DNA from: Escherichia phage SR02
DNA: 64,000 nucleotides
Direction: 5' to 3' (one strand)
Sequence record: OQ870566.1
Shown here: positions 14,202-37,158 of the stretch, in pieces
How the letters are laid out: each line of letters opens with the position of its first letter
How positions within the stretch are numbered: the stretch's first letter is position 1
Notes under the pieces: model-generated
What the model was told of the DNA's origin: nothing
Seen by the model: the letters and a program-made list of their open reading frames with translations, nothing else
Database searches by the model: none
Made by a program: the position numbers and the translations under genes

Positions 14202-15213
14202 AATTCTTCTCCTCTGAATAAGAGTATAAAGGGCTAGGCATATCTAACCCGTAAAGGCACCCTCATAACAACAACCCGTGTACGCTGAAGTAAAGGGGGC
14301 TTCATGTTAAGGCTTAGTCATAAAGGCCATGTCACGTTAAGGCCTATCCATCCATGTGCTGTGTTTAAGCTTACCACATTTACTACATCTCCAAGTGGAC
14401 TTATAAAGGGTGTGAACTCTTTCATCCCCGTAAGCTTTGCGTATCCGATAGTACTCATGATCACATTTGAATTGCTTAATGATTAACTTAATTTTCCACA
14501 TAAGTTCTCTTTCAACCTTATATATAAGAGTTTAAAATTCTGATTTGACCGAGTGGGGCTAGGCGCTCTGCGACGAATTGTTAAAAAGGGGGAGTCCTCA
14601 AATAAAAAAGGGTTATTGGCAATGCCTTTACACCTTCTTCCACGTTCCAGCTTTCCCCGTGCCTACTCCCCGTTATTCTTTCCCCGTGTATACCATCCTA
14701 TTCATTAGCTACCCGTTTATTTAGTTCCCCTTTAGAGAGTAAGAGAAAGGCTAGTCACTGATAATGATTAGATTAAGGCACTATGAATAAGCTAATAATA
14801 CCCCTAGTTACTACCCCATTCCCCCATAGTTTGAGTGTAAATAGTTTCAATAGTAATGATTATGAGTGCAATAATGATGTATGTATTAATTAAGTGGATA
14901 ATAGTAATTAACAGTTATTATATTCTTTTTACTCTTTTCTTTTTTTCAGCGTTCTGTTGGTCTTTTTCTTTTATGAGTTAACTAATTATTTAAGTGGTAT
15001 ATTATTACCGCACTATCTTGCTATGTTTCCCCGTGGTCTATCCTGCGGTTGTATACTCCCCGTGTCCTGGTCTGTTGGTCTGTTACCCGTGGTGTTATCG
15101 TTAATGTTATAAAGTAACAATAGCTAGTAAGTTGATGCTCTGAGTATGGAAAGTTTAGTAAATTAAATTCCTTTAGTATTCAGTGAGTTATGAAAAAGTT
15201 AGAAAATAAATGG

Positions 15214-15242
15214 TTGACAGGCTTTTCCTTTAATATATAGTT
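15214..15242 (+). promoter_or_regulatory. sigma70-type early promoter (TTGACA, about 16 bp spacer, TATAGT)
   Basis: Consensus -35 hexamer and near-consensus -10 read directly; about 45 nt upstream of the first plus-strand gene. Confidence 0.6.
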
Positions 15243-17270: not shown

Positions 17271-17469
17271 TAGGGTGATTGTATTCCTTACTCCCTTTTA
17301 GCTCGTTGTGATGCGTTACAGGCCGTTAAATGGTGCTTTACAAGCCTTTTCCTACGATGTATCACGCGCGCCCGTTCCTTTACCTCCTGATTTCTTCCGG
17401 TGTCCTATCAACAATAAAATAAATTCCTTTATAAAACAGTGAGATATAAAATAATTTGAAAAAAGGGTA

Positions 17470-17497
17470 TTGACAGGGTTTTCCTGTATAGTAATAT
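17470..17497 (+). promoter_or_regulatory. sigma70-type early promoter (TTGACA, 16 bp, TAATAT)
   Basis: Consensus hexamers read directly. Confidence 0.6.
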
Positions 17498-20805: not shown

Positions 20806-21249
20806 GTGGCTAAATCTAAAATCAGCATGAAGGGCGGGCGTTGTTTTGCTATCTCTGAACTAGAGAAAGAGAAACCGAAGGCAACTAATCACGTCAGTAA
20901 GCGTAGTTTAAAACGTCGTGCTGCAAAAGCTGAGGCTGAATCCCATGTCCCTTCCAGTGTGGCAAAACGTGTAGGTCATCGTGTCCATCGTGCTGATGCG
21001 TTGTTGTTAGCTGATCATAAACGTTCTTTGTTACAGAGCGGGGGCGCTAAAACAGAAGAAGAGAAGAAGTTAGAAATCTTCTGTAATGGTCGCACCCGTG
21101 GTAAACAGAAGTTTAAAGGTAGCACGAAAGACCCGCAAGCATTCCCTAAGACAAGTCAGTGTGCACCTGATGTTTTCTACGCAGATAGTAAACACAAGTG
21201 GGGCGTTGAAAAATACATTGACCCCATCAAGGAGGCAAGGGTTAAGTAG
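20806..21249 (+). CDS. hypothetical basic protein (147 aa)
   Basis: Lys/Arg-rich ORF with RBS. Confidence 0.5.
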   Translation: MAKSKISMKGGRCFAISELEKEKPKATNHVSKRSLKRRAAKAEAESHVPSSVAKRVGHRVHRADALLLADHKRSLLQSGGAKTEEEKKLEIFCNGRTRGKQKFKGSTKDPQAFPKTSQCAPDVFYADSKHKWGVEKYIDPIKEARVK

Positions 21250-21329
21250 TAGGAATATAGCCCCCTCTTTTAGTACTATGACGCTCTTTCTGTAGCGTCG
21301 TGCCCTCTCCCCATTTGAAGCTTCCGCAT

Positions 21330-21352
21330 AGCCGCCTTTGAGCGGCTTTTTG
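21330..21352 (+). terminator. rho-independent terminator
   Basis: Hairpin AGCCGC...GCGGCU followed by UUUUU. Confidence 0.5.
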
Positions 21353-21414
21353 CGTTGCTGTAAGTGCATTTGCGAGTGTATTTATAGCAACGGTCATGTG
21401 TTGCTTTCAGGTTT

Positions 21415-21441
21415 GCCCCGGCTACGGCTGGGGCTTTTTTT
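21415..21441 (+). terminator. rho-independent terminator
   Basis: Hairpin GCCCC-GGCUACGGCU-GGGGC followed by UUUUUUU. Confidence 0.6.
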
Positions 21442-21466
21442 GTATCTATTGTATAGGGAATTTTCT

Positions 21467-21766
21467 ATGAAAAACCCATTCGAGTTGATAAGTACAGACC
21501 CTGTAGAAATCAACATGCTTTCATTGAAGTCCAAGCTGATCATTATTCTTACGGAGTTGATCCGTGAGCAGGGGTGGTCACAACGTGTCGCAGCAGAGAA
21601 GCTAGGTGTTAGCCAGCCAAGGATTAGTAACCTTATGAATGGACAGCTTTCAAAGTTCTCCGTCGATATGTTGTTGGAAATGGTTTTCAAGATGGGGTAT
21701 AAGCTGGACATGAACTTCACTCCACTAAACACCAAGTCGCCACTGGCAATATTTGTAAAAAAGTGA
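21467..21766 (+). CDS. HTH (XRE/Cro-like) transcriptional regulator (99 aa)
   Basis: ELIREQGWSQRVAAEKLGVSQPRISNLMNG helix-turn-helix signature; start moved to the ATG after the terminator. Confidence 0.65.
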   Translation: MKNPFELISTDPVEINMLSLKSKLIIILTELIREQGWSQRVAAEKLGVSQPRISNLMNGQLSKFSVDMLLEMVFKMGYKLDMNFTPLNTKSPLAIFVKK

Positions 21767-21897
21767 TTGTGTAAGTTACAAATAGTAAGATAACACCTAT
21801 TCCGAAAGAGTAGGTGTTTCTATAAACATCTTTTCGAGGGTGTTTATGGAAACAACAAAACAGGAGGTAGCAAGTTCTGATAACAACGGCCCAGCTA

Positions 21898-22287
21898 ATG
21901 TTGACATTGACTATTTATTATGAGGCAGGGAATCAGCCAACCGCATGTAAAGCTATGGTTGCGGATACCGTGATAAATAGAATGGCCCAACGAAAACTGA
22001 CCGCTGAACAGGTGATAAGACAAAAGAACCAGTTTGAGTGGATTCCGGTACTATTAAAACAGGAGAAACCTTATAAACGTTATGTAAAGCTGATTCGTGA
22101 TAAAAATCCGATGACTAAGCAGGCCATTGGAGAAAGCGAGCGACTTGCTAAACGTGCCCTTAAAAAGAATTATGTTCCGCTGTACAGTGGGACTTACTTT
22201 CAGAGTAAGAGCGAAGGGGTGCCAAAATGGTATGCCAATCCTATGTATTGTGGTGATTTAGTGTTCGATAATAGCTCTAGGGAATAA
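21898..22287 (+). CDS. putative cell wall hydrolase (SleB/CwlJ Hydrolase_2-like)
   Basis: IYYEAGNQPTACKAMVADTVINR resembles the Hydrolase_2 EARGE...AVA.VVLNR motif; weak RBS. Confidence 0.4.
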   Translation: MLTLTIYYEAGNQPTACKAMVADTVINRMAQRKLTAEQVIRQKNQFEWIPVLLKQEKPYKRYVKLIRDKNPMTKQAIGESERLAKRALKKNYVPLYSGTYFQSKSEGVPKWYANPMYCGDLVFDNSSRE

Positions 22288-22486
22288 TCACTAGTGCCAG
22301 ATTTGACAAACTAAATTCCTTTATAAACCAACCACTTAGTAAATTTATTGAAAAAGATGGTAGTATTCTGGGACTATGGGTAATGCTCTGTATATAGACC
22401 CTTTGAAAATTTCTTAGAAAATAAGTTTACTAAATATAACTTACTTAAATAATATTACTTTTAATCTCTGATAAAGGGTAAATAAT

Positions 22487-22783
22487 ATGACTTTAGAGGT
22501 ATATAAATTCCTTTTTGTACTCTGTTTAACTGTCAGCGTTCTAGGATTTATTGTTCTAAGAAACAAAGCAGCAAGCTGGGAGAGAATGTATAAATCTCTA
22601 GTCCGAGTGGATGAGATGTATAATGAGAAAGTTAAAGCAACTCTTAACGATCTTATTATGCAAGTTGAAGACAGAAACAAACGTCTTCAGAATCTCAACC
22701 ACGAAGTGTTACGCCTTGCTCGTGCTAACGAAGACTTGCGAGTGGCGATTGCTAAGCAGCAGGAGATTAACAGTGAAAGTTAA
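22487..22783 (+). CDS. membrane-anchored coiled-coil protein (98 aa)
   Basis: N-terminal TM helix FLFVLCLTVSVLGFIVL followed by charged heptad region. Confidence 0.5.
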   Translation: MTLEVYKFLFVLCLTVSVLGFIVLRNKAASWERMYKSLVRVDEMYNEKVKATLNDLIMQVEDRNKRLQNLNHEVLRLARANEDLRVAIAKQQEINSES

Positions 22784-22820
22784 TATCATATCTGACCGAT
22801 CTATTATACGTTTGAATAAC

Positions 22821-23006
22821 ATGAAGCCTGGGCTTTTATTCTCTTTAAAAGATACGCTTTATATTCGAACCAATTCAACTACTGAAAACTATGTGAAGTG
22901 TGTCAATGTTATTAGTGGAACCTTACAACCTTTAGATAAGGATGCAATTTGCTGGGTAAGGGATGACCTTCACATAACCAATATAGAGGCTAAAGATGAA
23001 GATTGA
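22821..23006 (+). CDS. small protein, member of a paralog family (61 aa)
   Basis: Shares KxGDxF/xLxTG-type pattern with ORFs at 22996, 23255, 26973, 27224, 27475, 28185. Confidence 0.35.
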   Translation: MKPGLLFSLKDTLYIRTNSTTENYVKCVNVISGTLQPLDKDAICWVRDDLHITNIEAKDED

Positions 23007-23250
23007 TCTTAAGGTAAATGAACCCTCTCTGTGTGTTGGTGATCTTAAACTTGGAGATGTATTCCAAATAAGGGAAACACGAGCAGATTTCTACATGGTT
23101 GTTCAACTGTTTAGGTCACAGGTTGAGGAGACTAAACCTTCTGATGGTGGTTGTGTCGTCCTCAGTCTAACAAACAAGCAAGTCCTTAAGCTCAGCCCAA
23201 AAAGTAAGGTTGTTCTTCTTCATAACGTTGTAATTACCAATAAAGGGTAA
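22996..23250 (+). CDS. small paralog-family protein (84 aa)
   Basis: LKLGDVFQIR motif; see paralog family. Confidence 0.45.
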   Translation: MKIDLKVNEPSLCVGDLKLGDVFQIRETRADFYMVVQLFRSQVEETKPSDGGCVVLSLTNKQVLKLSPKSKVVLLHNVVITNKG

Positions 23251-23254
23251 GTAG

Positions 23255-23470
23255 ATGGAAATTAAAGTATCTGAACACAAGTATGCAAACATAGAAGATA
23301 TTAAGAGTGGTGATGTCTTCTCTTACGATAAACGTTTCTGGCTGATGCTAGATGATGATCTCTCTAATGGACTACGTAGGGCTGCTGATCTAAGCACCGG
23401 TCATGTTGGTAACTTCAACCCATCATCCACTGTTATGCCTCGTCCTGATTTGCATTTGACTCAAAAGTAA
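23255..23470 (+). CDS. small paralog-family protein (71 aa)
   Basis: IKSGDVFSYD and DLSTGHVGN motifs. Confidence 0.45.
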   Translation: MEIKVSEHKYANIEDIKSGDVFSYDKRFWLMLDDDLSNGLRRAADLSTGHVGNFNPSSTVMPRPDLHLTQK

Positions 23471-23977
23471 CACCGACTTATAGCCCTTGTGTCTATCAGA
23501 GGGCTATGTGAGGGTGTTCCTCATTAACTTATTAATTCAGGCATATGCCACACCGCTAGGGAGAGCTTGCTCAAACATCCGGTGCTAGACTAAAACCTGT
23601 TAATTTTCGAAAGACTTTCTGATATGTAGGGGTACATATTAGTTTGGGATTCAGGAGACTTCCTAGGGGTAGGGAGTCTTCACCAGTTGGAATAAGAGAT
23701 AGCTCTAGAACCTGAACTCTTAGGCAGAGAAGGTCGGCAATGAGTACGCGGTCAGGATTAGTCTACTGACTAGGGCTATCCCTTATATCAACTGGCAATA
23801 ATGCCTCCACTAACAAAGAGAGATAGGTATGAAAGTATCAACCAAACGTATGAACCGCCCTGAACGTATGGATGCAGTAGCTAACGGTGCTCTGAAACTG
23901 GAAGGCTTCTGGATTCATGCAATGTCAGCCATCCGTAGTAAGCAAGGTAATTGGACATATAACAGTTAATAATTAAA

Positions 23978-24009
23978 AGGCTGCCCAATCGGGTGGCCTT
24001 TGTTGTTTT
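23978..24009 (+). terminator. rho-independent terminator
   Basis: Hairpin AGGCUGCC-CAAUCG-GGUGGCCU followed by UUGUUGUUUU; near-identical hairpin at 50138. Confidence 0.6.
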
Positions 24010-24108
24010 AGGTAAATCACCTTTAATTGCTTTTCCCATCTGCATTCCACATGAATGAGTGCAGCAGTGATTGGGGTGGTTTACCTAAACTAACAAGAGG
24101 AAGCTAAA

Positions 24109-24285
24109 ATGTCTAAGCAAACAATCAAACATACGCAAGCTGGTTACTCTTATGTTAACTCTCCTTGCTGTGGTGCTCGTGTTAATCTGGTTAAAGAAGA
24201 GGTTCGTATCGTTCAGCGTGGCGCTACTGTTGTTCGTTCATGTTGCGTCTGTGGTAATGATATTTTTATTAAAGGTAAAGTATGA
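24109..24285 (+). CDS. small zinc-ribbon protein (58 aa)
   Basis: Manually translated; SPCCGARV...SCCVCGND Cys pairs; AGAGGA RBS. Confidence 0.4.
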   Translation: MSKQTIKHTQAGYSYVNSPCCGARVNLVKEEVRIVQRGATVVRSCCVCGNDIFIKGKV

Positions 24286-24533
24286 AAAACTTTCAAGCTG
24301 CACCAATCACTAAAGTGATCGAAGTTGACGGTGTAATGATGACTGTTCCTCTGAACACTCGTTACATTGCAATTGACAAGATGGGCTATGTATGGGCTTG
24401 GAAGATCAAGCCTAGTTATAACGCACTGTTTGATGAGTTTGTTTGTACTGGTACTTACAGTCCTACATTCTTGGGTTTATTTGGAGAGTTTGATGGTAAG
24501 CATAAAATCATCACTCTCCCTGCTTGTGCTTGA
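24282..24533 (+). CDS. hypothetical protein (83 aa)
   Basis: ATGA overlap with previous ORF. Confidence 0.45.
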   Translation: MKNFQAAPITKVIEVDGVMMTVPLNTRYIAIDKMGYVWAWKIKPSYNALFDEFVCTGTYSPTFLGLFGEFDGKHKIITLPACA

Positions 24534-24540
24534 GGTTATT

Positions 24541-24705
24541 ATGTTCAAGTGGTTTAAACGTTTCTTCCATCTCCATGATTGGGAGACAATAAAAGAAATT
24601 CGTTTACACATACATAATGAGATTGGTCAAATAGAAGACACAGGTACTCGTTATATACTTCGATGTAAAACATGTGGTCATATCACCAAGCGAGATATGA
24701 TCTAA
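24541..24705 (+). CDS. small Cys-containing protein (54 aa)
   Basis: ATG after TGAGGTTATT RBS context; CKTCGH motif. Confidence 0.3.
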   Translation: MFKWFKRFFHLHDWETIKEIRLHIHNEIGQIEDTGTRYILRCKTCGHITKRDMI

Positions 24706-24713
24706 ATAATTCT

Positions 24714-24789
24714 GCGCTCTTAGCTCAATGGATAGAGCAGTAGCCTTCTAAGCTATTGGTTACAGGTTCGAGTCCTGTAGGGCGCACCA
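24714..24789 (+). tRNA. tRNA-Arg (anticodon UCU)
   Basis: 76-nt cloverleaf folded by hand: acceptor GCGCTCT/AGGGCGC, D-stem GCTC/GAGC, anticodon stem GTAGC/GCTAT with loop CTTCTAA, T-arm ACAGG-TTCGAGT-CCTGT, encoded CCA. Confidence 0.85.
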
Positions 24790-24911
24790 CATTTAGGGCT
24801 AGTATGGGTGCGGCACCAGAGTTAGTGTATCCCTGTTGAGGCGAGTGCTTTTATAACAGTGGGAATTACTTTCTTAGTGAGCTTCTGGTTCGATTCCAGA
24901 TAGTCCACCAA
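24790..24911 (+). other. tRNA-like 3' element (canonical T-arm GGTTCGATTCC plus CCA) lacking foldable acceptor and anticodon arms
   Basis: T-arm UCUGG-UUCGAUU-CCAGA and ...UCCACCA read directly; no complementary 5' acceptor or anticodon stem found by hand. Confidence 0.3.
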
Positions 24912-24928
24912 ATTAAGTGAGAGGTATC

Positions 24929-25105
24929 ATGGGTAATAAACTTTTAGTTATCTCCATAACTGAAGTCAATCAAAAACTACAATCAAAAGTTAGAACCCTA
25001 GTCTTCTTAGATGAGGAAGAAGGTAGGGATTTTATTGAGAATTCCGGCAAAACAATAATCTCTGTTGAACTGGCCGAGGTTATGTGCTCTTACAAAGCTT
25101 TCTAG
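24929..25105 (+). CDS. hypothetical protein (58 aa)
   Basis: ATG with GAGAGG RBS. Confidence 0.35.
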   Translation: MGNKLLVISITEVNQKLQSKVRTLVFLDEEEGRDFIENSGKTIISVELAEVMCSYKAF

Positions 25106-25114
25106 GAGGTAATT

Positions 25115-25414
25115 ATGAGTTGGGGTGGTGTAATATCCTTAATCTGTATCTTCCTTGTCTGTATAGCCCTTACAGGCTGCGTACAGAGTCGTCCTGATGG
25201 ATGGTGTGCAGTAGCAGTGGAAGGTGTTTGTGTTTCTCGCTGGCATAAAGGTAAGAAGGTTCCTTCTGGTGAAATTGATATGCGCTGGAACGGAGCAACC
25301 TGCTCTAATGCTAACCCTTCTATCAACGAAGAGAAATCTACACCGGATAATGTTGTGATTGATACAGCGTTGTGGTGTGGTGGCTCTGTAACAACAACCG
25401 GTAAGGAGTGGTAA
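25115..25414 (+). CDS. Cys-rich lipoprotein (99 aa)
   Basis: Strong RBS TAGGAGG; signal peptide with lipobox LTGC (ISLICIFLVCIALTGC); several further Cys. Confidence 0.6.
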   Translation: MSWGGVISLICIFLVCIALTGCVQSRPDGWCAVAVEGVCVSRWHKGKKVPSGEIDMRWNGATCSNANPSINEEKSTPDNVVIDTALWCGGSVTTTGKEW

Positions 25415-25415
25415 T

Positions 25416-25664
25416 ATGACAGCTCATTATTGGAATACAAAGAAGCTTCTTGAAGAGATGGCTGGGGGTAGTAGAGTACAGCTAATCTCTATGCTTCGAA
25501 TGGATGCTCGCTCTTTACGTTTTCAAGTAAAGATTGGTAACTTTAGTGATGGTCTTTATTACACACTGAAGGAAAGAATTAAGAAGACTCACTTTATTAT
25601 GTACGGAATCAAACCGAGAACGTATGTTAACTACATGTATTGGGATACATGCTACGATAATTGA
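25416..25664 (+). CDS. hypothetical protein (82 aa)
   Basis: Tightly following ORF. Confidence 0.45.
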   Translation: MTAHYWNTKKLLEEMAGGSRVQLISMLRMDARSLRFQVKIGNFSDGLYYTLKERIKKTHFIMYGIKPRTYVNYMYWDTCYDN

Positions 25665-25671
25665 GGTTATT

Positions 25672-25893
25672 ATGTTATTTGAAGCTAAGCAAACATTACC
25701 AGTAGTTCCTTTGTCTACACTTCTTAGTGGGAGTGCTTTTAGACATGATAATGGTTTTTGGATTAAGGGCGACCAAGAGGTTGGAGGATATATTACCTGC
25801 ATCAACATCTGCAACGGCGTTGTTGACGGATTTCGTCCAGCCGCTGAAGTCACTCCTCAATCCAACGCAAAGGTTGTAGGTTTGGTATATTAA
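25672..25893 (+). CDS. hypothetical protein (73 aa)
   Basis: ATG after TGAGGTTATT RBS context. Confidence 0.4.
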   Translation: MLFEAKQTLPVVPLSTLLSGSAFRHDNGFWIKGDQEVGGYITCINICNGVVDGFRPAAEVTPQSNAKVVGLVY

Positions 25894-25902
25894 GGAGTTC
25901 AT

Positions 25903-26076
25903 ATGAGCTGTTTTGGTGGCGGTGAAGTAGATGACGATGATGACATGGAATCCAACGGTACATGTCCTGATTGTGGGTGTGAGACATGGGATGGGGTGTC
26001 TGTCTATCCTGTCTGTAGTTACTCACCAGTGATTTGTAAAACATGTGGAGATCAACCTTGTGATCAGTCCTGTTAG
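25903..26076 (+). CDS. small acidic Cys-rich protein (57 aa)
   Basis: AAGGAG RBS; CPDCGC...CKTCGDQPC clusters. Confidence 0.45.
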   Translation: MSCFGGGEVDDDDDMESNGTCPDCGCETWDGVSVYPVCSYSPVICKTCGDQPCDQSC

Positions 26077-26077
26077 T

Positions 26078-26293
26078 ATGTTAATTGTTTACCTGATAGG
26101 TGTGGTGTTATCAGGTGTGTTTGTTAAGGTTGTTGATATTAAAGATGATCAAGTCTTCAGACATTGGAGCGGATATCCAAACCTCAGCAAAATAGCAATT
26201 GTCCTTTTCTTGTGGCCTATCATTGTTGCGTTGCTTATAATTATAGGACTTTGGACTTTGCTATGGGAGTTAATTCTTCCTGTCAAAAAGTAA
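26078..26293 (+). CDS. small membrane protein with two TM helices (71 aa)
   Basis: Hydrophobic segments LIVYLIGVVLSGVFV and IAIVLFLWPIIVALLIIIGLW. Confidence 0.45.
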   Translation: MLIVYLIGVVLSGVFVKVVDIKDDQVFRHWSGYPNLSKIAIVLFLWPIIVALLIIIGLWTLLWELILPVKK

Positions 26294-26652
26294 GAGCTTA
26301 TCGTGAAGGATTCTTACGAGAGTCCTTTGAGATAGGACTTCAGATCTCCTATCAAACTAACATTCATGTAACTAGCCCATAAGGGCGTTACCCTTTAATA
26401 ACCCAGCCCACTAAGGGGGCGGGAGTTTAGTGCTGGATTGGCTTTACGCTTATTCCTACAAAGGCAACCGATTGTTAGATCTTACATGCAACATTAATTA
26501 ATAGGATAAGGGAGGATTCGTCCCCTCCCCCTATTCATAAACTATTAGGAGAGTACATTAGCTGATTAGCTGTAGAAGGTAGGCCGATATCTACAGCGTG
26601 GCCCAGAGCTAGTGTGCTCCCCTGATAGTTTTAACATTTAATTGGAGGATGT

Positions 26653-26964
26653 ATGAAAGCACGAAGAACTATATGGACTCCGATGCAGATTGAAAATCTT
26701 CGGAGACTAATCAAAGAGTACTCGGTTCAAGAAGTTGCTCAGATTATGAATGTAACGGAGAATGCAGTTAATACAGCTTGCACTAAGTTCGGAATATCAA
26801 GAGCTGTAATCCGAGTTAAGTGGTCTAAAGAAGAGGACCAGTTCCTTATCCGTAATGCTGGGTTCATGTCTATTCAGAGAATGGCTGACATGCTCGGTAG
26901 AAGTTATGCTGCTGTACAGAACAGGGCATGTATGCACCTTAACATTAGCCTCAAACTTAAATAG
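26653..26964 (+). CDS. putative DNA-binding protein with duplicated HTH-like motif (103 aa)
   Basis: Two W/S-anchored helix-turn-helix-like repeats (WTPMQIENLRRL...; WSKEEDQFLIRN...). Confidence 0.5.
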   Translation: MKARRTIWTPMQIENLRRLIKEYSVQEVAQIMNVTENAVNTACTKFGISRAVIRVKWSKEEDQFLIRNAGFMSIQRMADMLGRSYAAVQNRACMHLNISLKLK

Positions 26965-26972
26965 GAATCAAT

Positions 26973-27227
26973 ATGAAAGTTAACGAATTGAACAAAACTA
27001 CCAAGACAGTGAAACTGCACACTCTGAAAAAGGGTGATACATTCCGTTTAGAGGAGAATGGACCAATCCACATGGTCTGCACTGCTGAATCTACTAATTG
27101 GGTGGAAGTTGCACGAGATCGAGTAGTGTGTGTCAGGCTGGAAGATGGTAATCTGAGTGGTCCGGTCGAGGGTATTCCTGTTATCCCTGTTAAAGTTGAA
27201 GCTAACGTTATTAAGGGTTCTAAATGA
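26973..27227 (+). CDS. small paralog-family protein (84 aa)
   Basis: LKKGDTFRLE motif. Confidence 0.5.
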   Translation: MKVNELNKTTKTVKLHTLKKGDTFRLEENGPIHMVCTAESTNWVEVARDRVVCVRLEDGNLSGPVEGIPVIPVKVEANVIKGSK

Positions 27228-27469
27228 AAATCATCCCTAAGAAAAAGGATAATACAGTAAAATTGGAAACAATTATTCCTGGAAATCCTTTCGTGGTTCA
27301 GAACGGAAGCGCCTCTCCTCAGTATTACATGAGGGTTGAAAATGCTTCTTGTAACATCCGTATAGCCAGTGGTTGGGTTCCTGTGGTAAACCTTTCCACA
27401 GGTGTACTATCTGTTAAAGGTCTTGACGATCAGGTAGAAATGATTCGTATGTCAGTGGTTCAGGAGTAG
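27224..27469 (+). CDS. small paralog-family protein (81 aa)
   Basis: VVNLSTGVLSV motif. Confidence 0.5.
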   Translation: MKIIPKKKDNTVKLETIIPGNPFVVQNGSASPQYYMRVENASCNIRIASGWVPVVNLSTGVLSVKGLDDQVEMIRMSVVQE

Positions 27470-27474
27470 TGCAT

Positions 27475-27723
27475 ATGAGCATTATTAACATTAAAGTTAA
27501 AGACAAAGAGGAAAAAATCCTCCGTGTCAGAGATCTAAATATGTCAGATGTGTTTACTCTCCAAGAGTGCCAGAATCAAAAGGTTTATATGATGACAGCT
27601 AAAAGCAGGGGTTGTCAACCTGCTGGAGCTGTTAACTTAGGCACTGGAGAACTGCGTGTCATCTCTGGTGATATGGTTGTTGGTGAGAAGTTTATTAAGG
27701 CTGAAATCATCTTAACTTCGTAG
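27475..27723 (+). CDS. small paralog-family protein (82 aa)
   Basis: AGGAG RBS; VNLGTGELRVISGD motif. Confidence 0.5.
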   Translation: MSIINIKVKDKEEKILRVRDLNMSDVFTLQECQNQKVYMMTAKSRGCQPAGAVNLGTGELRVISGDMVVGEKFIKAEIILTS

Positions 27724-27954
27724 GAAAACAAATGAGACGTAAAGCATATTCTTATGACGATATGATTAACCAGAAAGGCTTCGGTCAACGACAGCCTGAC
27801 GGTTCAATTATCTGGTTCGTAAACGGACAGAAAAAGGTAGCTAAATAAGCCCTCTTCTCTCCTCCTTTTAGTACTATGACGCCTCTCTGTGGGCGGCCCA
27901 ATTTGCGTAGGGAATTCCCTCTACGCAGCCATGACTTTTTAAGGAATTTCCCAT

Positions 27955-28188
27955 ATGTCTAAAGTAAGCGCAATCAATGCAATCCGTCAACCGTTCCAGT
28001 TCCAATCCAAATCAACCCAAACCTTCAGTGAGCCTAAGCAGATTCGCTTGGGTGGCACGGAGAAAACTGTGTTCGATCTGGCTAAAAACAAGAGCGTTAC
28101 TGTAGTTGATGGTGGCACTCTGGTTAACGTTTCACATCGTATCCGTACTGGCAAAACTGCCAAAGATCGTGCCAAGAAAGGTGAATGA
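27955..28188 (+). CDS. hypothetical protein (77 aa)
   Basis: ORF after a conserved intergenic element. Confidence 0.45.
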   Translation: MSKVSAINAIRQPFQFQSKSTQTFSEPKQIRLGGTEKTVFDLAKNKSVTVVDGGTLVNVSHRIRTGKTAKDRAKKGE

Positions 28189-28454
28189 TGAAAGTAAAAA
28201 GAGCAAATGCTCCAATACCAAAAAAGGTCAGGATTGATCAAACGAAACCAGGTGAAGTTGTTCGATTTATTGATAGTGAAAAACTCTACCTTGTGAGTAA
28301 ACTGACCAATTTAGCATCTATCAGTGTTAACGATCCACTGATGCCACAACTCGTATACATAACCAATCTTGATACTGGTAATGTTATTGACCTACGACCA
28401 GATACTCAGGTTGTTAGAGTTAAAGCTGAATGTGAATACATTGAGGATGTATGA
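28185..28454 (+). CDS. small paralog-family protein (89 aa)
   Basis: KPGEVVRFID and NLDTGNVIDL motifs. Confidence 0.5.
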   Translation: MMKVKRANAPIPKKVRIDQTKPGEVVRFIDSEKLYLVSKLTNLASISVNDPLMPQLVYITNLDTGNVIDLRPDTQVVRVKAECEYIEDV

Positions 28455-28918
28455 TGATCAAGATTAACAAGAACGGATGGTTGCATAAGTTCAACAAAAC
28501 CATGTCAGGTTTACCCAACTCTCATTGGGATAATATGACTAACTTTTGCGAATACTTCTGGCGTACAGTGATGCACTTCATTGCACTGACGCTGCTGTTA
28601 GGGGTTGTATACGCTGCACTGTCCATGATTGGTGGCTCTTTCCTTGGACATGAGAATTTTTTGTCATTCAATTGGTGGACATGGTTCACTGCTCCTGCTC
28701 TTGGTGCCTTATCTTTGGCTGCTTTGGCTGGTGTAGTGTTTGGTGGTGGTTGGGCATTTTATGAACTTCGTGGAATATACCGTGACCACCGAACTAGCAC
28801 ATATGAAACTCGTGCTGAAAAGAAACGACGTAAGAAAGAGCGTCGTGATTCAAACTGGATTGTTGTGATGTATCGTAGCAAGAAAGAGAAATACTGTCCT
28901 TCAGTTAGGGTAGAGTAA
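28451..28918 (+). CDS. membrane protein (155 aa)
   Basis: Three hydrophobic helices; basic C-terminus. Confidence 0.5.
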   Translation: MMIKINKNGWLHKFNKTMSGLPNSHWDNMTNFCEYFWRTVMHFIALTLLLGVVYAALSMIGGSFLGHENFLSFNWWTWFTAPALGALSLAALAGVVFGGGWAFYELRGIYRDHRTSTYETRAEKKRRKKERRDSNWIVVMYRSKKEKYCPSVRVE

Positions 28919-29133
28919 TGATAACACTTGTGTCGATCGTTTATAGAATACACTATCGTCTAGACAAAGGTAAAACCTATAAGTGCAAGAGTAAGACAGG
29001 CAATAGATGCTCTGTAGAAAACAACTCTGGTCAATGGGTGGATGTACCTTGTTGTTGGTTCAGGAAAGATTTGACTAACAAAGAAATTGACGAAATCCTT
29101 AGTGATGATTTTGTAAAATCAGGTGATTTTTAG
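28918..29133 (+). CDS. hypothetical protein (71 aa)
   Basis: Overlap-coupled ORF. Confidence 0.4.
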   Translation: MITLVSIVYRIHYRLDKGKTYKCKSKTGNRCSVENNSGQWVDVPCCWFRKDLTNKEIDEILSDDFVKSGDF

Positions 29134-29368
29134 TTGTAGTAACGCCTATAGCCTTCTTCGGAGGGCTATGTGAGTTATTCTGACTCAACTAACCTAATCT
29201 TAATATATTTCCCGTATGGGGCCGATGCTAGGGCGAGGAATACTCCTCAAACATCCGTCGGATAGATATTTTAAGAGCAGGTTATCCACAGATATTGGGT
29301 AATATCTTTTTGGATTTAAAGCTTGACTCTTTTCGGAGAGTCCTTTTTTAAATTCAATGAGAGGAAAT

Positions 29369-29521
29369 ATGTCTAAATTAGATTTAAAACTGCTAGCAGC
29401 AGCGGTAGTGATTTGTGCACTAGCACTGGTAACGCAGAGAACATCTGGATTTATTCAGTGTTTCTTTTCTGGGCAATCCACTTATCAGTGGGTTATTGAC
29501 GAGTGTAAACAACAGGAGTAA
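29369..29521 (+). CDS. small hydrophobic protein (50 aa)
   Basis: GAGAGGAAA RBS; N-terminal hydrophobic helix. Confidence 0.3.
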   Translation: MSKLDLKLLAAAVVICALALVTQRTSGFIQCFFSGQSTYQWVIDECKQQE

Positions 29522-29523
29522 GT

Positions 29524-29886
29524 ATGAATACACGTCCCATCAAGGGCAACGTTAATATTGAAACTCTGAACAAGGTTGCATCAAACCTCGGTGGAATGTC
29601 CAACGATGAGCTTGAGCAAGAACTTGCTTGGATTGCAAATGGTATCAAAGTTGCTAAAGGTAAGATTACTCGTGAGCAAAGCAACATGAAAGCTCACAAG
29701 TATATCATCCGTCGTGCAAATGTGTTACCAGAGCGGGTTGTACATCTTGCCCGTAAAAACTATGCAGAAGCAAAGAAAGCTCTGGAAGAAGCTACTTTCC
29801 AGAAGCATCAATTTATGAACAACTATAGAAACTTCCGAGATATTCTTTATATCCGTAAGTCGATTGAGTTGATTAAAAACCAATAG
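29524..29886 (+). CDS. hypothetical protein (120 aa)
   Basis: ORF with RBS. Confidence 0.5.
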   Translation: MNTRPIKGNVNIETLNKVASNLGGMSNDELEQELAWIANGIKVAKGKITREQSNMKAHKYIIRRANVLPERVVHLARKNYAEAKKALEEATFQKHQFMNNYRNFRDILYIRKSIELIKNQ

Positions 29887-29897
29887 AGGTTGGTATA

Positions 29898-31097
29898 ATG
29901 TTTCCAGTAACATTAGAAGATACTGAAGGTAATGTTTTAACGGTCAACCCTCCTTGTTATGGGTTCCTTCAGCTTCGCAACTATAACGGTGGCGTTGATG
30001 AAGACGATGACGAATATGATGACTACTTCGACCCTAACATGTATGAGGCAACTCATGGGTGGAATATGCACGTTCGAGTGTGGCATGAAGAAGCTAACGT
30101 TCGTAGTGCTGATGGGGAAGAGTTCCTGTTAAGCCGAGAGATGGATATGTGTAAAATCAAGCATATCTGGAACTCTGGAACTCATATGAAGATGTTAGGT
30201 TTTAGACGTTGGCGTGATGAAAAGCATGTAGCTGAAGCTTTAAGTTGGTGTTCGTATGAAGATGAAGACACACCTCCCAAGAATAACATTGAACGTTGGA
30301 ACGACAAAAACCCTGAACATCGAACCACACCTCGTGCTGTACTGGAAGCTATGGAAGCATTTGTGGACAAAGGTCGTCCCTCCTGTTTACGCTGGCACGA
30401 TAAAGGTTTTATGGGGGTAGCAACTGAGAACATTCCTGCTGATCGTTGTCTGTTCTATTTAATGTTAGACCGAACCTTCTATTGTGAAGATGAAGAGAGT
30501 CAAGTTGAAACCTTCCTTCATAAATGGTTGGTTGAGGGCTGGACAATCCTTCAGGCTTATGTTTACTCACGAATGGTTAGCACTTACACTAACCTCTTAG
30601 GGGAAACGAAAGCAACTCTGGTTGGTAATGATTGGGATGCTTGTATTTTCCCAGCGTCACTGTTTACAGTCGGCATGGCTGATAAATACGCTGAAGCATT
30701 TCAAGTTCCTTGGCGTCAACAGTCATATAGAGATGGGTGTGGTCATTTCCGTGATGAAGATTTTAAGTGGATTCATTATGAGAATGATGAAACAGCAGAG
30801 TTACGAGTGAACAACTCAATGTTCTTGCCGGTTATGCACCCTGATCTAGTAAAAGATGAGTCAGAAATACTCAAAGGTGACAACCTTCTGGTTACCTTTG
30901 CTCGTCGGGTATCTAAAGATGAAAGAACAGCTGACAGATTAGTCTACGCTTATCGCGCTGAGACTAAAGATATGTTCAACATCTACAACATTATTCAGCG
31001 ATTTAGTAGTGGAACTCTGGACCAAAGTTCGGAGTATTCAGTGATTCCATCCTCTGAGTGGGATGGTATTATGAGCGGATTATTTTTAGGAAAATAA
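29898..31097 (+). CDS. hypothetical protein (399 aa), first gene of the amidoligase island
   Basis: Long ORF; acidic N-terminal segment; no recognised motif. Confidence 0.6.
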   Translation: MFPVTLEDTEGNVLTVNPPCYGFLQLRNYNGGVDEDDDEYDDYFDPNMYEATHGWNMHVRVWHEEANVRSADGEEFLLSREMDMCKIKHIWNSGTHMKMLGFRRWRDEKHVAEALSWCSYEDEDTPPKNNIERWNDKNPEHRTTPRAVLEAMEAFVDKGRPSCLRWHDKGFMGVATENIPADRCLFYLMLDRTFYCEDEESQVETFLHKWLVEGWTILQAYVYSRMVSTYTNLLGETKATLVGNDWDACIFPASLFTVGMADKYAEAFQVPWRQQSYRDGCGHFRDEDFKWIHYENDETAELRVNNSMFLPVMHPDLVKDESEILKGDNLLVTFARRVSKDERTADRLVYAYRAETKDMFNIYNIIQRFSSGTLDQSSEYSVIPSSEWDGIMSGLFLGK

Positions 31098-31107
31098 AAG
31101 GTTAGTT

Positions 31108-32079
31108 ATGTCAATCTCCACAACGATCGTACCTCTGAATCTTCAACAAGATTTAGGGGAACAGAAGTTCTTAGGTCGTGGGTGCTTCGGTATCCACAAC
31201 TACATGCAAGGCCAGTGTGTAAATGATATTAATGGTGAAGTTATAACTGAAGAGGGGCGTTATAGACGCTTCAACCGTGATATCAACTTGCAATTGGAGA
31301 TGTTGAATTACTGGACTCACTCTTTTCACGGTCATATTGCATCTGATATTGAAAAGAACTTGGTTGAAACAGCAGACATTATGAACTCTATGTCTTGCTA
31401 TCGTGATGTATTTACGATCACTTCAGCGAATAGTGTTGCTGTCAACCTTCGTGAGCATCCAGCAGATCAGATCTTCACAGGACTTATGCTCTTCCGTAGT
31501 ATTCTGGAAGGGCAATATCGTGGAATGGATTTCCTAGCAGAAGGAATTGAAGACAGGGAAGAGTGGCTGAAGCGTAAACGCATCGGCATCGCTCTAGTGT
31601 TAGCTGGGTTGGGTCGTGACTTCTTCGGTGGATGGTCTCAACGAGGAAGAGCCAATGGGAGTAGTGAGAGCACCTCTATTGTTATTAACAACAATATGTC
31701 AGCAGCAGCATTCCTTCCTTTGGTTGTAGACTCTGATGAATACACGAAGCAAGTGTGGGTTCAAAACCCCTTCGGTGTTGGCGACAACGAGAATGGTTAT
31801 GTTCGTAACCATAACCAAGATGCCTTACGAAGATTTGCTCGTGCTAAAGATCAAGACCCGGACGAGTATGAAACAATGTCAGAGTGGTTAAGACTCTGGT
31901 CCAACTGTTATGGTCACAAACGTGAAGCAATAGACGACAAGTTGGGAAACATTACAGTACAAAACTTTACAGCCCGACTAATTCAGCGTACTGGTCCAAG
32001 CTCTGGCCTTACTACTGAAGAAGTTGGTAACACAATCTCATCTCTCTTTTCTGAACTAGTGGAGTATTACAATGACTAA
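31108..32079 (+). CDS. hypothetical protein (323 aa)
   Basis: Long ORF in the island; no recognised motif. Confidence 0.6.
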   Translation: MSISTTIVPLNLQQDLGEQKFLGRGCFGIHNYMQGQCVNDINGEVITEEGRYRRFNRDINLQLEMLNYWTHSFHGHIASDIEKNLVETADIMNSMSCYRDVFTITSANSVAVNLREHPADQIFTGLMLFRSILEGQYRGMDFLAEGIEDREEWLKRKRIGIALVLAGLGRDFFGGWSQRGRANGSSESTSIVINNNMSAAAFLPLVVDSDEYTKQVWVQNPFGVGDNENGYVRNHNQDALRRFARAKDQDPDEYETMSEWLRLWSNCYGHKREAIDDKLGNITVQNFTARLIQRTGPSSGLTTEEVGNTISSLFSELVEYYND

Positions 32080-32878
32080 GCGCAAATTCCTTATCGGCTC
32101 TGACCCTGAAATGTTTGTTCGTACCAGCAATGGTATTATCACCTCTGTGGCTGGTCTGTTAGGCTGTTCTAAGGACGATAAGATCACTCTGGCTAAGGAT
32201 GTTCGTCTTCAAGAGGACAACGTACTGGCTGAGTTTGATATTGACCCACAGAGCGGCTTTGAGGCGTTTAACGATAACATGCAACGTGGTATCGATCTCA
32301 CCAACAATGTCCTGAACAAACTGGACATGGAAACAGCTCCGGGTGTTAGCTCTCACATCTTCACTGAAGAAGAGATGAAGACTTTCAACGAATCAGCGTT
32401 CATCTTCGGGTGTACTCCTGATTTCAACGCTTTCACTGGTCAGAAGAATCCATCCCCGACTTCTCAGAATAAAGGGCTTCGTACTGCCGGTGGTCACGTA
32501 CATCTCGGCGTAGTTGGTGCTTTGGATATTACTTTGCAAACTCAGATGATGCTGGGTGTGCTGTGTGACTACTTCCTGTCCCTCCCAGCAGTTATTATGG
32601 ATAAAGATACTCGCCGTAAAGAACTGTACGGCAAAGCTTCTGCAATCCGTTATAAAGACTATGGTATTGAATACCGTTCACTGTCTAACTTCTGGATTAG
32701 TGATCGTGAAAACCGTAAGTTTGTTTACGATCAGGTTGACAAGGTTGTTCAGCAGTGTGATATGTCCACTCTGATGGCATTGCACTCTCGCCTTCCGATT
32801 GAGAAGCTTCATGAAATCATTAACGGCAACAACGTTAAAGAAGCGGACCAGCAGATCAAACTCCTTCAGGTAGCATAA
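32072..32878 (+). CDS. putative carboxylate-amine ligase (amidoligase-like paralog)
   Basis: GSDPE...RTAGGHVHLGV...EYRSL motif set resembling the HVH box and acidic metal ligands of the glutamine-synthetase-like fold; tentative. Confidence 0.4.
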   Translation: MTKRKFLIGSDPEMFVRTSNGIITSVAGLLGCSKDDKITLAKDVRLQEDNVLAEFDIDPQSGFEAFNDNMQRGIDLTNNVLNKLDMETAPGVSSHIFTEEEMKTFNESAFIFGCTPDFNAFTGQKNPSPTSQNKGLRTAGGHVHLGVVGALDITLQTQMMLGVLCDYFLSLPAVIMDKDTRRKELYGKASAIRYKDYGIEYRSLSNFWISDRENRKFVYDQVDKVVQQCDMSTLMALHSRLPIEKLHEIINGNNVKEADQQIKLLQVA

Positions 32879-32887
32879 GAGGTTATC

Positions 32888-33505
32888 GTGAGCTTAGTAG
32901 CTGATTTTTCTCATTACTATAATGGTACATGGATTGCTAAACGAGCAGGTAATATCAACCTTCCATGTTTTGTGATTGGTGTTGAGCAGAGCGGTAACTT
33001 CCGCAGCGATGACTTCTCTCACGAAGCAGAGCAGGCTCTGTATTTTGTTGTAGAGCAGTGGTACAAGAATGAGCAAGGGAATCTTCGAAACACTACGATG
33101 AATATTCCAGTGTTCGACCCAACCTTGATTCTTGAATCACCTGATGTTGGTTATCTGTTCCATAACGGTAACACTGTAAGCTGGACTCATATTAACCCTG
33201 TTCGTCAGAGAGCAAAGGGTTTGATGGGTAATAAGATTCGAAATGCTCCGGGTGTTGGTCGTGCCATCTCCGGGGAGATGGTTTACAGCCTGTTCAATCC
33301 TGAATTCGAGGGATTGGTTACTCGTTATATTTACATCAACCCTACTGATGGTAAGGTGCATTATAAAGGTGCACTGGTAGGACAAGTAGATCTGGAAGCA
33401 CCTCGTGACTCTTACGGTCAGCAATCAATGCGACTTCTGGAACACTTTCATCACATTTCTGAAAACCTTAGCAATTACAATATTACGTTGGTGGATTCGT
33501 TATGA
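32888..33505 (+). CDS. hypothetical protein (205 aa)
   Basis: GTG start, overlap-coupled. Confidence 0.5.
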   Translation: MSLVADFSHYYNGTWIAKRAGNINLPCFVIGVEQSGNFRSDDFSHEAEQALYFVVEQWYKNEQGNLRNTTMNIPVFDPTLILESPDVGYLFHNGNTVSWTHINPVRQRAKGLMGNKIRNAPGVGRAISGEMVYSLFNPEFEGLVTRYIYINPTDGKVHYKGALVGQVDLEAPRDSYGQQSMRLLEHFHHISENLSNYNITLVDSL

Positions 33506-34605
33506 CAACTGTAGCGCAAACTTTTGGATATCGAGAAGGTCGTTTAACTGAGGCGCATAGTTCAATTGCACTTCAGTGCGGTGTCGGTATTGAACTTGAA
33601 CTCGAAGGTTCCGATCATATCGAAGCAGATATGTGGGATTGTACAGAGGATGGTTCCCTGCGTAATGGTTGTGAAATGGTATGTTCACGACCTTACAACG
33701 GACAGGAGTTGTTAGACGCTATCAACAACCTGAGTGAAGCAGTAGCTGAATCGCACGCCGAGGGGACTTGGCGTTGCTCTACTCACGTTCATATGGATAT
33801 GAGGGATGCTGATAGTAATATCCTCAAGAAAACCATTCTCGCTTGGACCTTCTATGAAAAGATGTTGTTCAAGTGTTCAGGCTATCATCGTTACCGTAGC
33901 AACTTCTGCCCTGCGTTTGCAGTGGTACAAGCACAGGTAATGAATGCCTCTGACGCATTTAACTACGACGATGAAGAGTTCTTCAACCGTCTGGTTCGTT
34001 CATGGGATAAGTATACATCCCTGAACCTTCTGCCACTTGCCCAATACGGTTCGATTGAATTCCGTATCAGTGAGCCTAAGTGGAAACGTGGTCAACTTCT
34101 CAATCTGGTTAACCGCTTCTTGATGTTGAAGAAGCTGGCTTTAGATAACGCAGAGATGAGCAATGATCAGTTTATTGAGCATTTAAATACTGTACGATTT
34201 GCCCCAATGCTTCCTTACCTTCCTCTGGATTACAATCTGGACGAATCGGATTTGCATTCAGGGTATTGTATGGCCCGTGATGTTTTGTATTGCCGTTCTC
34301 ATGGAGTAGAGCAGTCTGGTCGTATTCGTTTACGTCGAACCAACTCCAACGGAGAAGTTCTTGTTGACTTACGTCTTATCTCAGACTTCTACGGATTCCT
34401 TGGATATGTACGAGGGAACGCTAACAACTTGTACCAAGAGATTCTGGTTATGCTTCGTACAACTGACCTATCTACTGTACGATCTGCACCAGAGCAACGT
34501 ATCCGTGCTATTTTTGACTTACTGCGTGAGTCAGGTCACAGTGATAGCAATATCACAGGGTACATTCCAGATCATCTGGAAAATCAGTTAGAGCAAGCGC
34601 TGTAA
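33502..34605 (+). CDS. amidoligase (Amidoligase_2-like carboxylate-amine ligase)
   Basis: GVGIELELEG...CSTHVHMDMRD...FRISEP motifs; genomic context with GAT-like and AIG2-like genes matches the family's known neighbourhoods. Confidence 0.6.
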   Translation: MTTVAQTFGYREGRLTEAHSSIALQCGVGIELELEGSDHIEADMWDCTEDGSLRNGCEMVCSRPYNGQELLDAINNLSEAVAESHAEGTWRCSTHVHMDMRDADSNILKKTILAWTFYEKMLFKCSGYHRYRSNFCPAFAVVQAQVMNASDAFNYDDEEFFNRLVRSWDKYTSLNLLPLAQYGSIEFRISEPKWKRGQLLNLVNRFLMLKKLALDNAEMSNDQFIEHLNTVRFAPMLPYLPLDYNLDESDLHSGYCMARDVLYCRSHGVEQSGRIRLRRTNSNGEVLVDLRLISDFYGFLGYVRGNANNLYQEILVMLRTTDLSTVRSAPEQRIRAIFDLLRESGHSDSNITGYIPDHLENQLEQAL

Positions 34606-34684
34606 TCAATGGGTGCCTCTGATAAAGGGGCACAATTTAAAGGTTAATTAGATGAAAGGGTTTACCCTTCAGGTGGATTAGAAA

Positions 34685-36715: not shown

Positions 36716-36717
36716 GT

Positions 36718-36951
36718 ATGGAAATTCGTAAGATGATGCTGGATAACGTTGTAACTACTCGACGTATCCCGATGACGAGCACAGGATGTGATAACCTTCG
36801 TGCAATCCAGAAGTGGATGCAAGCTGGTATTGGTCAAGTACTTGAGACACAGGTTGAGGTTCCTTTCCCAACGGTGATCAATAACGTACTTGCTGATTAT
36901 GTAAAAATCAAAGGCATTAAGGTAGAACCTCATGTCAAATCTGGTTCCTAA
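36718..36951 (+). CDS. hypothetical protein (77 aa)
   Basis: ORF in island. Confidence 0.4.
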   Translation: MEIRKMMLDNVVTTRRIPMTSTGCDNLRAIQKWMQAGIGQVLETQVEVPFPTVINNVLADYVKIKGIKVEPHVKSGS

Positions 36952-37156
36952 GAAACCGAAGATCACTCTCCTACAATATTACATAGGAGTTCATATCGAA
37001 TTAGTAACGGAGCAGCGAAAGCTGTATCCGTTCGCTTTCGGTCTGATTGATGCACCATCCGATGAAGTAGAGAACGACGCGTTCAACGACTACTTCGAAA
37101 TTGAAGCTCAGATTCAAAAAACTCGTAACGAAATTCTTAAACTTAAAGGTATCTAA
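36932..37156 (+). CDS. hypothetical protein (74 aa)
   Basis: ORF in island. Confidence 0.4.
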   Translation: MSNLVPKKPKITLLQYYIGVHIELVTEQRKLYPFAFGLIDAPSDEVENDAFNDYFEIEAQIQKTRNEILKLKGI

Positions 37157-37158
37157 CA

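Follow-up and report, generated by a model that had tools for sequence, protein, structure and literature searches.

The stretch of DNA analysed here, 64,000 nucleotides of Escherichia phage SR02 (sequence record OQ870566.1; hereafter the window), carries between positions 22773 and 28454 eight small genes that encode members of a single protein family. The SR02 window belongs to a Kuravirus, i.e. a phiEco32-like podophage, and the region that holds the array is the early-gene block of this phage. Positions 22400-28900 match 142 phage records, the best of which are Kuravirus and other Gordonclarkvirinae podophages with 88-94% identity; SU10, PGN6866 and phiEco32 are among the top nucleotide relatives. 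The + strand of the window is the reverse of the phiEco32 record, and the array spans the equivalents of phi32_92 to phi32_116. The genes of this block form the early class, which is transcribed by the host RNA polymerase with sigma70, and have been described as 'mostly of unknown function' (PMC8948821, PMC9965538, PMC12276001). Within the block the family genes occupy four slots, holding three genes, one, three and one, and are tightly packed or overlapping. A Shine-Dalgarno site precedes each of the eight, and several overlap a neighbouring gene by 4-11 nucleotides. The eight genes are as follows, with E values from the leave-one-out profiles described below where indicated:

22773-23006, + strand: member 1, 77 amino acids, most likely from a GTG start; orthologue of phi32_115; phrog_16423; leave-one-out E 7e-4
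22996-23250, + strand: member 2, 84 amino acids; orthologue of phi32_114; phrog_9955; leave-one-out E 2e-4
23255-23470, + strand: member 3, 71 amino acids; orthologue of phi32_113; phrog_6570; AlphaFold model with a pLDDT (per-residue confidence score) of 85
25672-25893, + strand: member 4, 73 amino acids; orthologue of phi32_104; phrog_6570 (E 2e-24); absent from a preliminary description of this DNA
26973-27227, + strand: member 5, 84 amino acids; phrog_7832; orthologues in SU10, Bas91 and ev_rybdy8; leave-one-out E 9e-8
27224-27469, + strand: member 6, 81 amino acids; orthologue of phi32_96; phrog_7431; start overlaps the stop of member 5 (ATGA)
27475-27723, + strand: member 7, 82 amino acids; orthologue of phi32_95; phrog_12612; ATG 27475 with AGGAG upstream; alternative GTG at 27469
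28185-28454, + strand: member 8, 89 amino acids; without an orthologue in phiEco32

The preliminary description had reported seven paralogous open reading frames (ORFs), starting at 22821, 22996, 23255, 26973, 27224, 27475 and 28185. All seven are present at these positions on the + strand with every motif quoted for them, and all seven belong to the family by leave-one-out and independent hidden Markov models (HMMs), shuffled sequences and PHROG matches; their count, however, has to be raised to eight by the ORF at 25672-25893. This additional gene has a GAGG Shine-Dalgarno sequence before its ATG at 25672 and is recognised by the leave-one-out HMM with an E value of 2.5e-4 and by the independent HMM with 1e-5. 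The gene placed at 22821 is likewise real, but not its start position. Most likely it begins at GTG 22773, 16 codons 5' of ATG 22821, which would then be internal. This start is preferred because with the start at 22821 the PHROG profile is matched only from its position 17 onwards, because the longer reading restores the N-terminal 'MKVN...' strand of the family, because a GGAG Shine-Dalgarno sequence lies upstream and phi32_115 is annotated with a length of 78 amino acids, and because the extended gene overlaps the stop of the upstream gene, as it does in phiEco32.

Pairwise identity among the window paralogues is only 13-27%. Pairwise tests are correspondingly weak: BLASTP E values lie mostly at 0.001-2, and the hhalign probabilities, which reach at most 87%, are in several cases below 10% and can fall under 1%. 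Taken by themselves, these values would suit a resemblance due to chance or composition, or ORFs that are not genes. Since the BLASTP and hhalign results are individually weak, the case for paralogy rests on profiles. HMMs were built from seven members at a time, and in every instance the left-out ORF ranked first among the non-training ORFs in a set of 793 stop-to-stop ORFs from the window. The leave-one-out E values ranged from 7e-4 to 9e-8, and the best non-member had an E value of at least 0.07. The left-out proteins scored 15-28 bits, as compared to 0 +/- 2-3 bits for shuffled versions (1000 each), and the real score was reached by 0-1 of 1000 shuffles. An HMM made from five metagenomic proteins that have no BLASTP match to the window proteins recovers exactly the eight (E 2e-10 to 1e-5), the next ORF having an E value of 1.3. 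In addition, each of the eight matches at least one PHROG of the family with E values from 4e-6 to 5e-42, i.e. its own strongly and several of the others' weakly. Leave-one-out HMMs, shuffles, the independent HMM and the PHROG matches agree in selecting exactly these eight from about 640-790 ORFs. Chance is also contradicted by two concordant structure models, by the Shine-Dalgarno sites, by purifying selection and by the 1692 cluster representatives related to the family. The profile, shuffle, structure-model and selection tests refute a chance or compositional resemblance, to which we assign a negligible probability, and the eight ORFs are true paralogues. The alignment and HMM comparison suggested in the preliminary description has thus revealed similarity beyond composition. 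A profile scan of the 64-kb window found no further member at E <= 0.01.

None of the eight proteins matches Pfam or NCBIfam, and no PADLOC hit was obtained at E <= 0.1. A PDB sequence search with the family profiles (A1, A4) returned nothing below E 0.1, and comparison of 71 family members with Pfam gave scattered noise only. Word-indexed protein searches retrieved little besides orthologues of the window proteins; two of the proteins, member 8 being one of them, show 100% identity to proteins of Escherichia phage SR02. When 1.84 billion cluster representatives were searched exhaustively with the profile, 1692 matched at E <= 1e-3; of the 150 best of these, 125 are standalone proteins of 54-100 amino acids. 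The domain also occurs as two-domain tandem fusions. Eight PHROGs, all labelled 'unknown function', unite in this family (6570, 7832, 8365, 7431, 12612, 16423, 9955 and 29867). A Foldseek search against BFVD retrieved gp21 of phage N4 and ORF65 of Pseudomonas phage PaP3, which the family HMM recognises with E values of 1.5e-16 and 9e-10, respectively, as well as proteins of Dickeya, Serratia, Vibrio, Proteus, Erwinia and Klebsiella phages. A single copy was found in N4 (first 30 kb scanned), in PaP3 (whole genome) and on each of two metagenomic contigs. The eight window genes represent the expansion, within one phage lineage, of a single widespread, uncharacterised family of phage proteins.

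Several observations concern the outer range of this family. A SprT-like metalloprotease of 478 amino acids (P0088; MFV0249145.1, from a metagenome-assembled genome of Tenacibaculum) carries five tandem small-barrel domains at its C-terminus, the variable loops of which are rich in Lys and Arg ('KGEKKRTRY'). Among the top 150 matches, no other member comes from a named bacterium and no other is fused to an enzyme. Seven giant metagenomic proteins of 1600-3200 amino acids (P0096, P0100, P0103, P0107, P0189, P0209 and P0221), which are almost devoid of Pfam matches, bear 2-6 weak copies of 'L-x-pGD-x-F ... NL-x-TG'; one is encoded on a phage-like contig of 123 kb (L007:10001-18004), next to a peptide deformylase gene and a Gp80-family gene. 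An NHL-repeat protein (P0091) was rejected as a motif-only false positive of the profile. By annotation, PaP3 positions 31903-37655 and phiEco32 phi32_77 to phi32_86 have a run of middle genes in common, including a gamma-glutamyl cyclotransferase/YtfP gene, an ATP-grasp or amidoligase gene and a glutamine amidotransferase gene. Together with the small-barrel family, these common middle genes suggest a deeper relationship between the PaP3 and phiEco32 groups.

Over 71 diverse members, only M1, G21, F24, G59 and V70 (numbering of the 26973 protein) are near-invariant, G21, F24, G59 and V70 being conserved in at least 90% of the sequences. M1 is the initiator Met, G21 and F24 lie in 'L-x-x-G-[DES]-x-F', G59 lies in 'L-x-[TS]-G', and V70 is the one Val of this set. 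The window proteins consist of a single domain of about 65-90 residues with both turn motifs, members 1, 2, 4 and 8 deviating at one motif position each. All length variation is confined to one segment between 'Y-[MIL]' and 'C-V-N-L', which comprises from a few to about 17 residues. Two distant paralogues, 26973 and 23255, were modelled with AlphaFold (pLDDT values of 84 and 85), and both models are five-stranded small barrels, so that the structure prediction proposed in the preliminary description gives the same barrel twice. The 26973 model has a pTM (predicted TM-score) of 0.74 and is least confident in the variable segment. Each product is therefore predicted to be a standalone single domain of about 70-90 amino acids that folds as a five-stranded SH3-like beta-barrel. 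Against PDB, Foldseek matched the predicted models only to domain I of EF-P/eIF5A, with E values of at least 5e-3; the best solved-structure matches of the models are EF-P/eIF5A domain I and the C-terminus of ribosomal protein L2. No candidate active site was found among the positions conserved in the 71 members. We interpret the conserved positions as turn and core residues, whose task would therefore be to maintain the fold and not to provide an active site.

The array was compared over eight Kuravirus-like genomes, i.e. the window and the homologous block of seven relatives. In the relatives the copies number 3 (LAMP), 6, 8, 9, 9, 9 and 11 (ev_rybdy8), and the four slots that they occupy do not change. 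At 40% identity the Kuravirus-like members fall into at least 20 orthogroups; seven of these occur in at least half of the eight genomes, and singletons are numerous. The small genome of LAMP lacks the entire first cluster. In slot 2, KBNP1711 and ev_rybdy8 have side-by-side copies that are 56-59% identical, the window retains one of the two types, and LAMP and PAS59 retain the other, a pattern that indicates duplication followed by differential loss. In three relatives the slot of member 8 is occupied by a family member with 28-29% identity, and in phiEco32 it is empty. Two divergent phiEco32 genes, phi32_109 and phi32_98 (L001:3526-3750 and 6408-6638; E 2e-4 and 1e-6), match the N-terminal half of the profile only, lack the 'NL-x-TG' hairpin and have no counterpart in the window. 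The preliminary description had proposed repeated duplication and divergence of small early genes, and this view is supported by the tandem copies with 56-59% identity, by the 3-11 copies per genome and by the early class of these genes in the literature.

It had further proposed that the genes are under diversifying selection, and here our findings differ. Pairwise Nei-Gojobori ratios of nonsynonymous to synonymous substitution rates (dN/dS) among orthologues in the eight genomes, a method that a few positively selected sites could escape, were 0.09-0.22 for seven members, like those of neighbouring early genes (0.03-0.33 for eleven genes). By alignment column, dN/dS was 0.12 for conserved and 0.27 for variable positions, and no pair exceeded 1. 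Mean dS values of the family orthologues (0.44-1.11) tend to lie above those of neighbouring genes (0.17-0.88). The orthologues are under purifying selection, which is more relaxed in the variable part, and the diversity of the array is due to old divergence combined with gene gain, loss and replacement, not to detectable positive selection.

What might these proteins do? We favour the view, to which we give a probability of about 0.5, that they serve as small binding modules produced when infection begins, each with a partner of its own, most probably a host protein, in the service of host takeover or counter-defence. Host RNA polymerase would transcribe the family genes within the first few minutes after infection. 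The conserved barrel would act as a scaffold, the variable loop and surface would provide each copy with its partner, and the partners would most likely be host proteins, bound for takeover or for neutralising host defences. Single copies would be accessory rather than essential, as their dispensability and turnover suggest. The binding-module view is based on the early position and small size of the genes and on a conserved core that appears purely structural, combined with one hypervariable segment. It is further based on the modular reuse of the domain in fusions, on the dispensability of whole clusters and on rapid turnover under purifying selection. A role in host takeover or anti-defence is suggested solely by position, dispensability and turnover.

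Several points weigh against this view. Our literature search, which did not reach the original phiEco32 papers (two in number), yielded no functional datum on any member, no assay for anti-defence activity, and neither a study of a member nor a mention of the paralogy. For a 9-kDa protein without catalytic residues, 'binding module' is almost the assignment by default, and the SH3-like barrel is too generic a fold to reveal a function. The solved folds nearest to the predicted models are barrels associated with translation or nucleic acids. Binders engaged in an arms race often show positive selection, and no sign of it was seen in the pairwise dN/dS values of the eight genomes. Lastly, a possible functional context did not recur. 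Prs-like and Nampt-like genes form a kind of pair that has been shown to counter NAD-depleting defences by rebuilding NAD+. Klebsiella phage 05F01 (LC483177.1; L011:8415-10192) has three family members within 2 kb at such a pair, two of them between the Prs-like and Nampt-like genes and the third about 200 bp upstream of the pair. However, a stretch of +/-5 kb around the pair contained no member in PHB05, VLCpiM5b, Bullseye and Felix O1, where the NAD-salvage genes are adjacent or split by an HNH endonuclease gene (the latter in Felix O1), and other phage records include no close relative of the 05F01 copy. We have therefore rejected an NAD-reconstitution (NARP1-type) locus as the functional context of the family.

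Gordonclarkvirinae are known to resist restriction systems without any known inhibitor (PMC11990801). This resistance makes the family genes reasonable candidates, but it is not evidence. A bolder version of the binding-module view would have the array act as a 'binder library', in which each barrel neutralises a different host defence or factor. Jointly, the barrels would explain why Gordonclarkvirinae broadly withstand restriction-modification and most of the other defences tested, and the scaffold, including N4 gp21 and PaP3 ORF65, would be a general, unrecognised anti-defence fold of lytic phages. We consider this extended proposal unlikely.

The fold matches invite another function, namely that of small nucleic-acid- or ribosome-associated barrels (of the KOW, EF-P domain I, Sm or cold-shock type) that would tune translation or RNA/DNA metabolism of the phage or the host. 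Apart from the matches to EF-P/eIF5A domain I and ribosomal L2, this would accord with the loose 'L-x-T-G' hairpin motif shared with EF-P, with the Lys/Arg-rich loops of the SprT-fused copies, as expected of the DNA-binding arm of a protease, and with weak EFP_N matches in one giant protein and in one of the 71 members (E 0.095). We nevertheless regard it as unlikely. No member reaches Pfam EFP_N, hhalign of the family profile against domain I of E. coli EF-P gave a P or E value of 0.39 over 6 columns, and the loop lysine of the EF-P 'PGKG' motif is absent. The isoelectric points of the window copies are 5.6-9.0 with net charges of -2 to +3, and the wider family is mostly acidic, with a median isoelectric point of 5.0. 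Since the family is mostly acidic, protein binding fits better than nucleic-acid binding.

If the partners are proteins, they could also be those of the phage, the copies being adaptors or regulators specialised for its own transcription, replication or early-to-middle switch. Indeed, the second three-gene cluster always follows a gene for a small double helix-turn-helix regulator (26653-26964, phi32_99), and the purifying selection, as well as the presence of seven orthogroups in half or more of the eight genomes, would suit such a task. Yet whole clusters are missing in viable relatives (LAMP, with 3 copies), the slots hold unrelated members in different phages, and single copies occur in the unrelated phages N4 and PaP3, which have differing transcription strategies. 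Moreover, mass spectrometry of RNA polymerase from phiEco32-infected cells revealed only gp36 and gp79 and no protein of this family (PMC12276001), which makes stable binding to RNA polymerase unlikely. A role in the phage's own processes thus appears improbable to us. It is very unlikely that the genes are mainly 'selfish' or near-neutral cargo that spreads between phages into intergenic gaps and is loosely kept. High turnover and the many singleton orthogroups would be expected of such cargo, as would the dS values tending above those of neighbouring genes, which suggest the exchange of old alleles, and the two copies inserted between normally adjacent NAD-salvage genes in 05F01, where Felix O1 has its HNH endonuclease. 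On the other hand, the dN/dS values of 0.09-0.22 and the conserved fold-defining residues show that there is selection on the protein, the slot positions are conserved across genera, and a 9-kDa barrel has no nuclease or mobility function.

The surroundings of the array contain two further features, both of which are tentative:

22308-22355, + strand: third copy of a 48-nucleotide element, preceding gene 22487 and the first cluster
23976-24001, + strand: terminator-like hairpin with an 11-bp stem and a T-rich tail, about 500 nucleotides 3' of the first cluster

The element ('AAAxTAAATTCCTTTA...', 48-74 nucleotides) is repeated at window positions 15160-15232, 17416-17488 and 22308-22355. Its copies at 15160 and 17416 sit directly upstream of near-consensus sigma70 promoters (TTGACA-16-TATAGT at 15214 and TTGACA-16-TAATAT at 17470), and judged from this arrangement the 48-nucleotide element may be an upstream element of early promoters. 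It should be noted that a consensus promoter scan gave fewer sites than shuffled sequences and no convincing promoter before the paralogue clusters. The otherwise dense block is interrupted by three long non-coding gaps (23471-23828, 26383-26652 and 29134-29356). The first and third open with a similar hairpin ('TATAGCC...GGGCTATGTGAG'), and both carry 'CTCAAACATCCG' about 100 nucleotides beyond it. An Rfam search of positions 21000-30000 identified tRNA only, and the long gaps match no Rfam family. The tRNA, a tRNA-Arg (anticodon TCT) at 24714-24789, is located in the central part of the early block, between family slots 1 and 2, and is kept in relatives. The gene at 22487-22783 (98 amino acids; orthologue of phi32_116) is labelled 'DNA helicase' in several GenBank records. 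Its product has no Pfam helicase domain and shows only a sub-threshold match to DUF4446, and the label looks like an annotation error copied between records.

The early block of phiEco32-like phages comprises about 40 small genes, almost all of them 'hypothetical', of which 3-11 per genome can now be assigned to one family. This assignment unites at least eight PHROG families without an assigned function and ties them to N4 gp21 and PaP3 ORF65, genes of model phages. It also provides a defined group of genes for deletion or expression. Kuravirus relatives that infect E. coli K-12 now exist (Bas86-94), and the family genes could be tested against their unexplained restriction resistance. Should the proteins indeed be target-specific binders on a 9-kDa scaffold, they would be useful as tools; should they have no measurable effect, they would represent one more expanded ORFan family. 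What is new is a well-defined, large family with a confident fold prediction, while the kind of finding, i.e. the lineage-specific expansion of a small phage ORFan family, is familiar.

Among known proteins, N4 gp21, PaP3 ORF65 and the PHROG proteins are like the window proteins in length, motifs and predicted barrel. The difference lies in the PHROGs splitting the family into at least eight groups without an assigned function, and in N4 (first 30 kb) and PaP3 (whole genome) showing one copy as compared to eight here. The KOW-like N-terminal domain of EF-P/eIF5A (PF08207) shows no significant sequence or profile similarity, none of the eight proteins reaching the gathering score of PF08207. 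It is one domain of a three-domain factor, whereas the window proteins stand alone, and the motif around EF-P Lys34 ('PGKG') in the beta3-beta4 loop is absent from all eight sequences. Homology to EF-P, which the fold matches and 'L-x-T-G' had brought to mind, was rejected at the sequence level by hhalign, the EF-P query having been checked against PDB entries 6enj and 3a5z. The scores for Tudor and PWWP barrels, for the RNA-polymerase-interacting barrels of CarD and the UvrD C-terminal domain and for the VapX antitoxin reflect generic fold resemblance only; no aromatic cage is inferable in the family, and no VapD-like toxin gene that would indicate a VapX-type pairing is located nearby.

Two further systems are instructive. 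The phiEco32 protein gp79 (82 amino acids), a middle-gene transcription factor that displaces sigma70, comes from the same phage group, falls into the same size class and exemplifies how a tiny phage protein can rewire a host machine. It was rejected as a relative, being unrelated in sequence: it differs from the family in a helix-rich-looking sequence that the family HMMs miss, and its gene lies in the middle block. Bacillus phage G has about 35 copies of a zinc ribbon (PMC7824862), which is likewise one small domain that was multiplied in one lineage and whose function is unknown or guessed. The phage G expansion involves another fold and a larger scale, while the copies in the window are very diverged and distributed over four slots of the early block.

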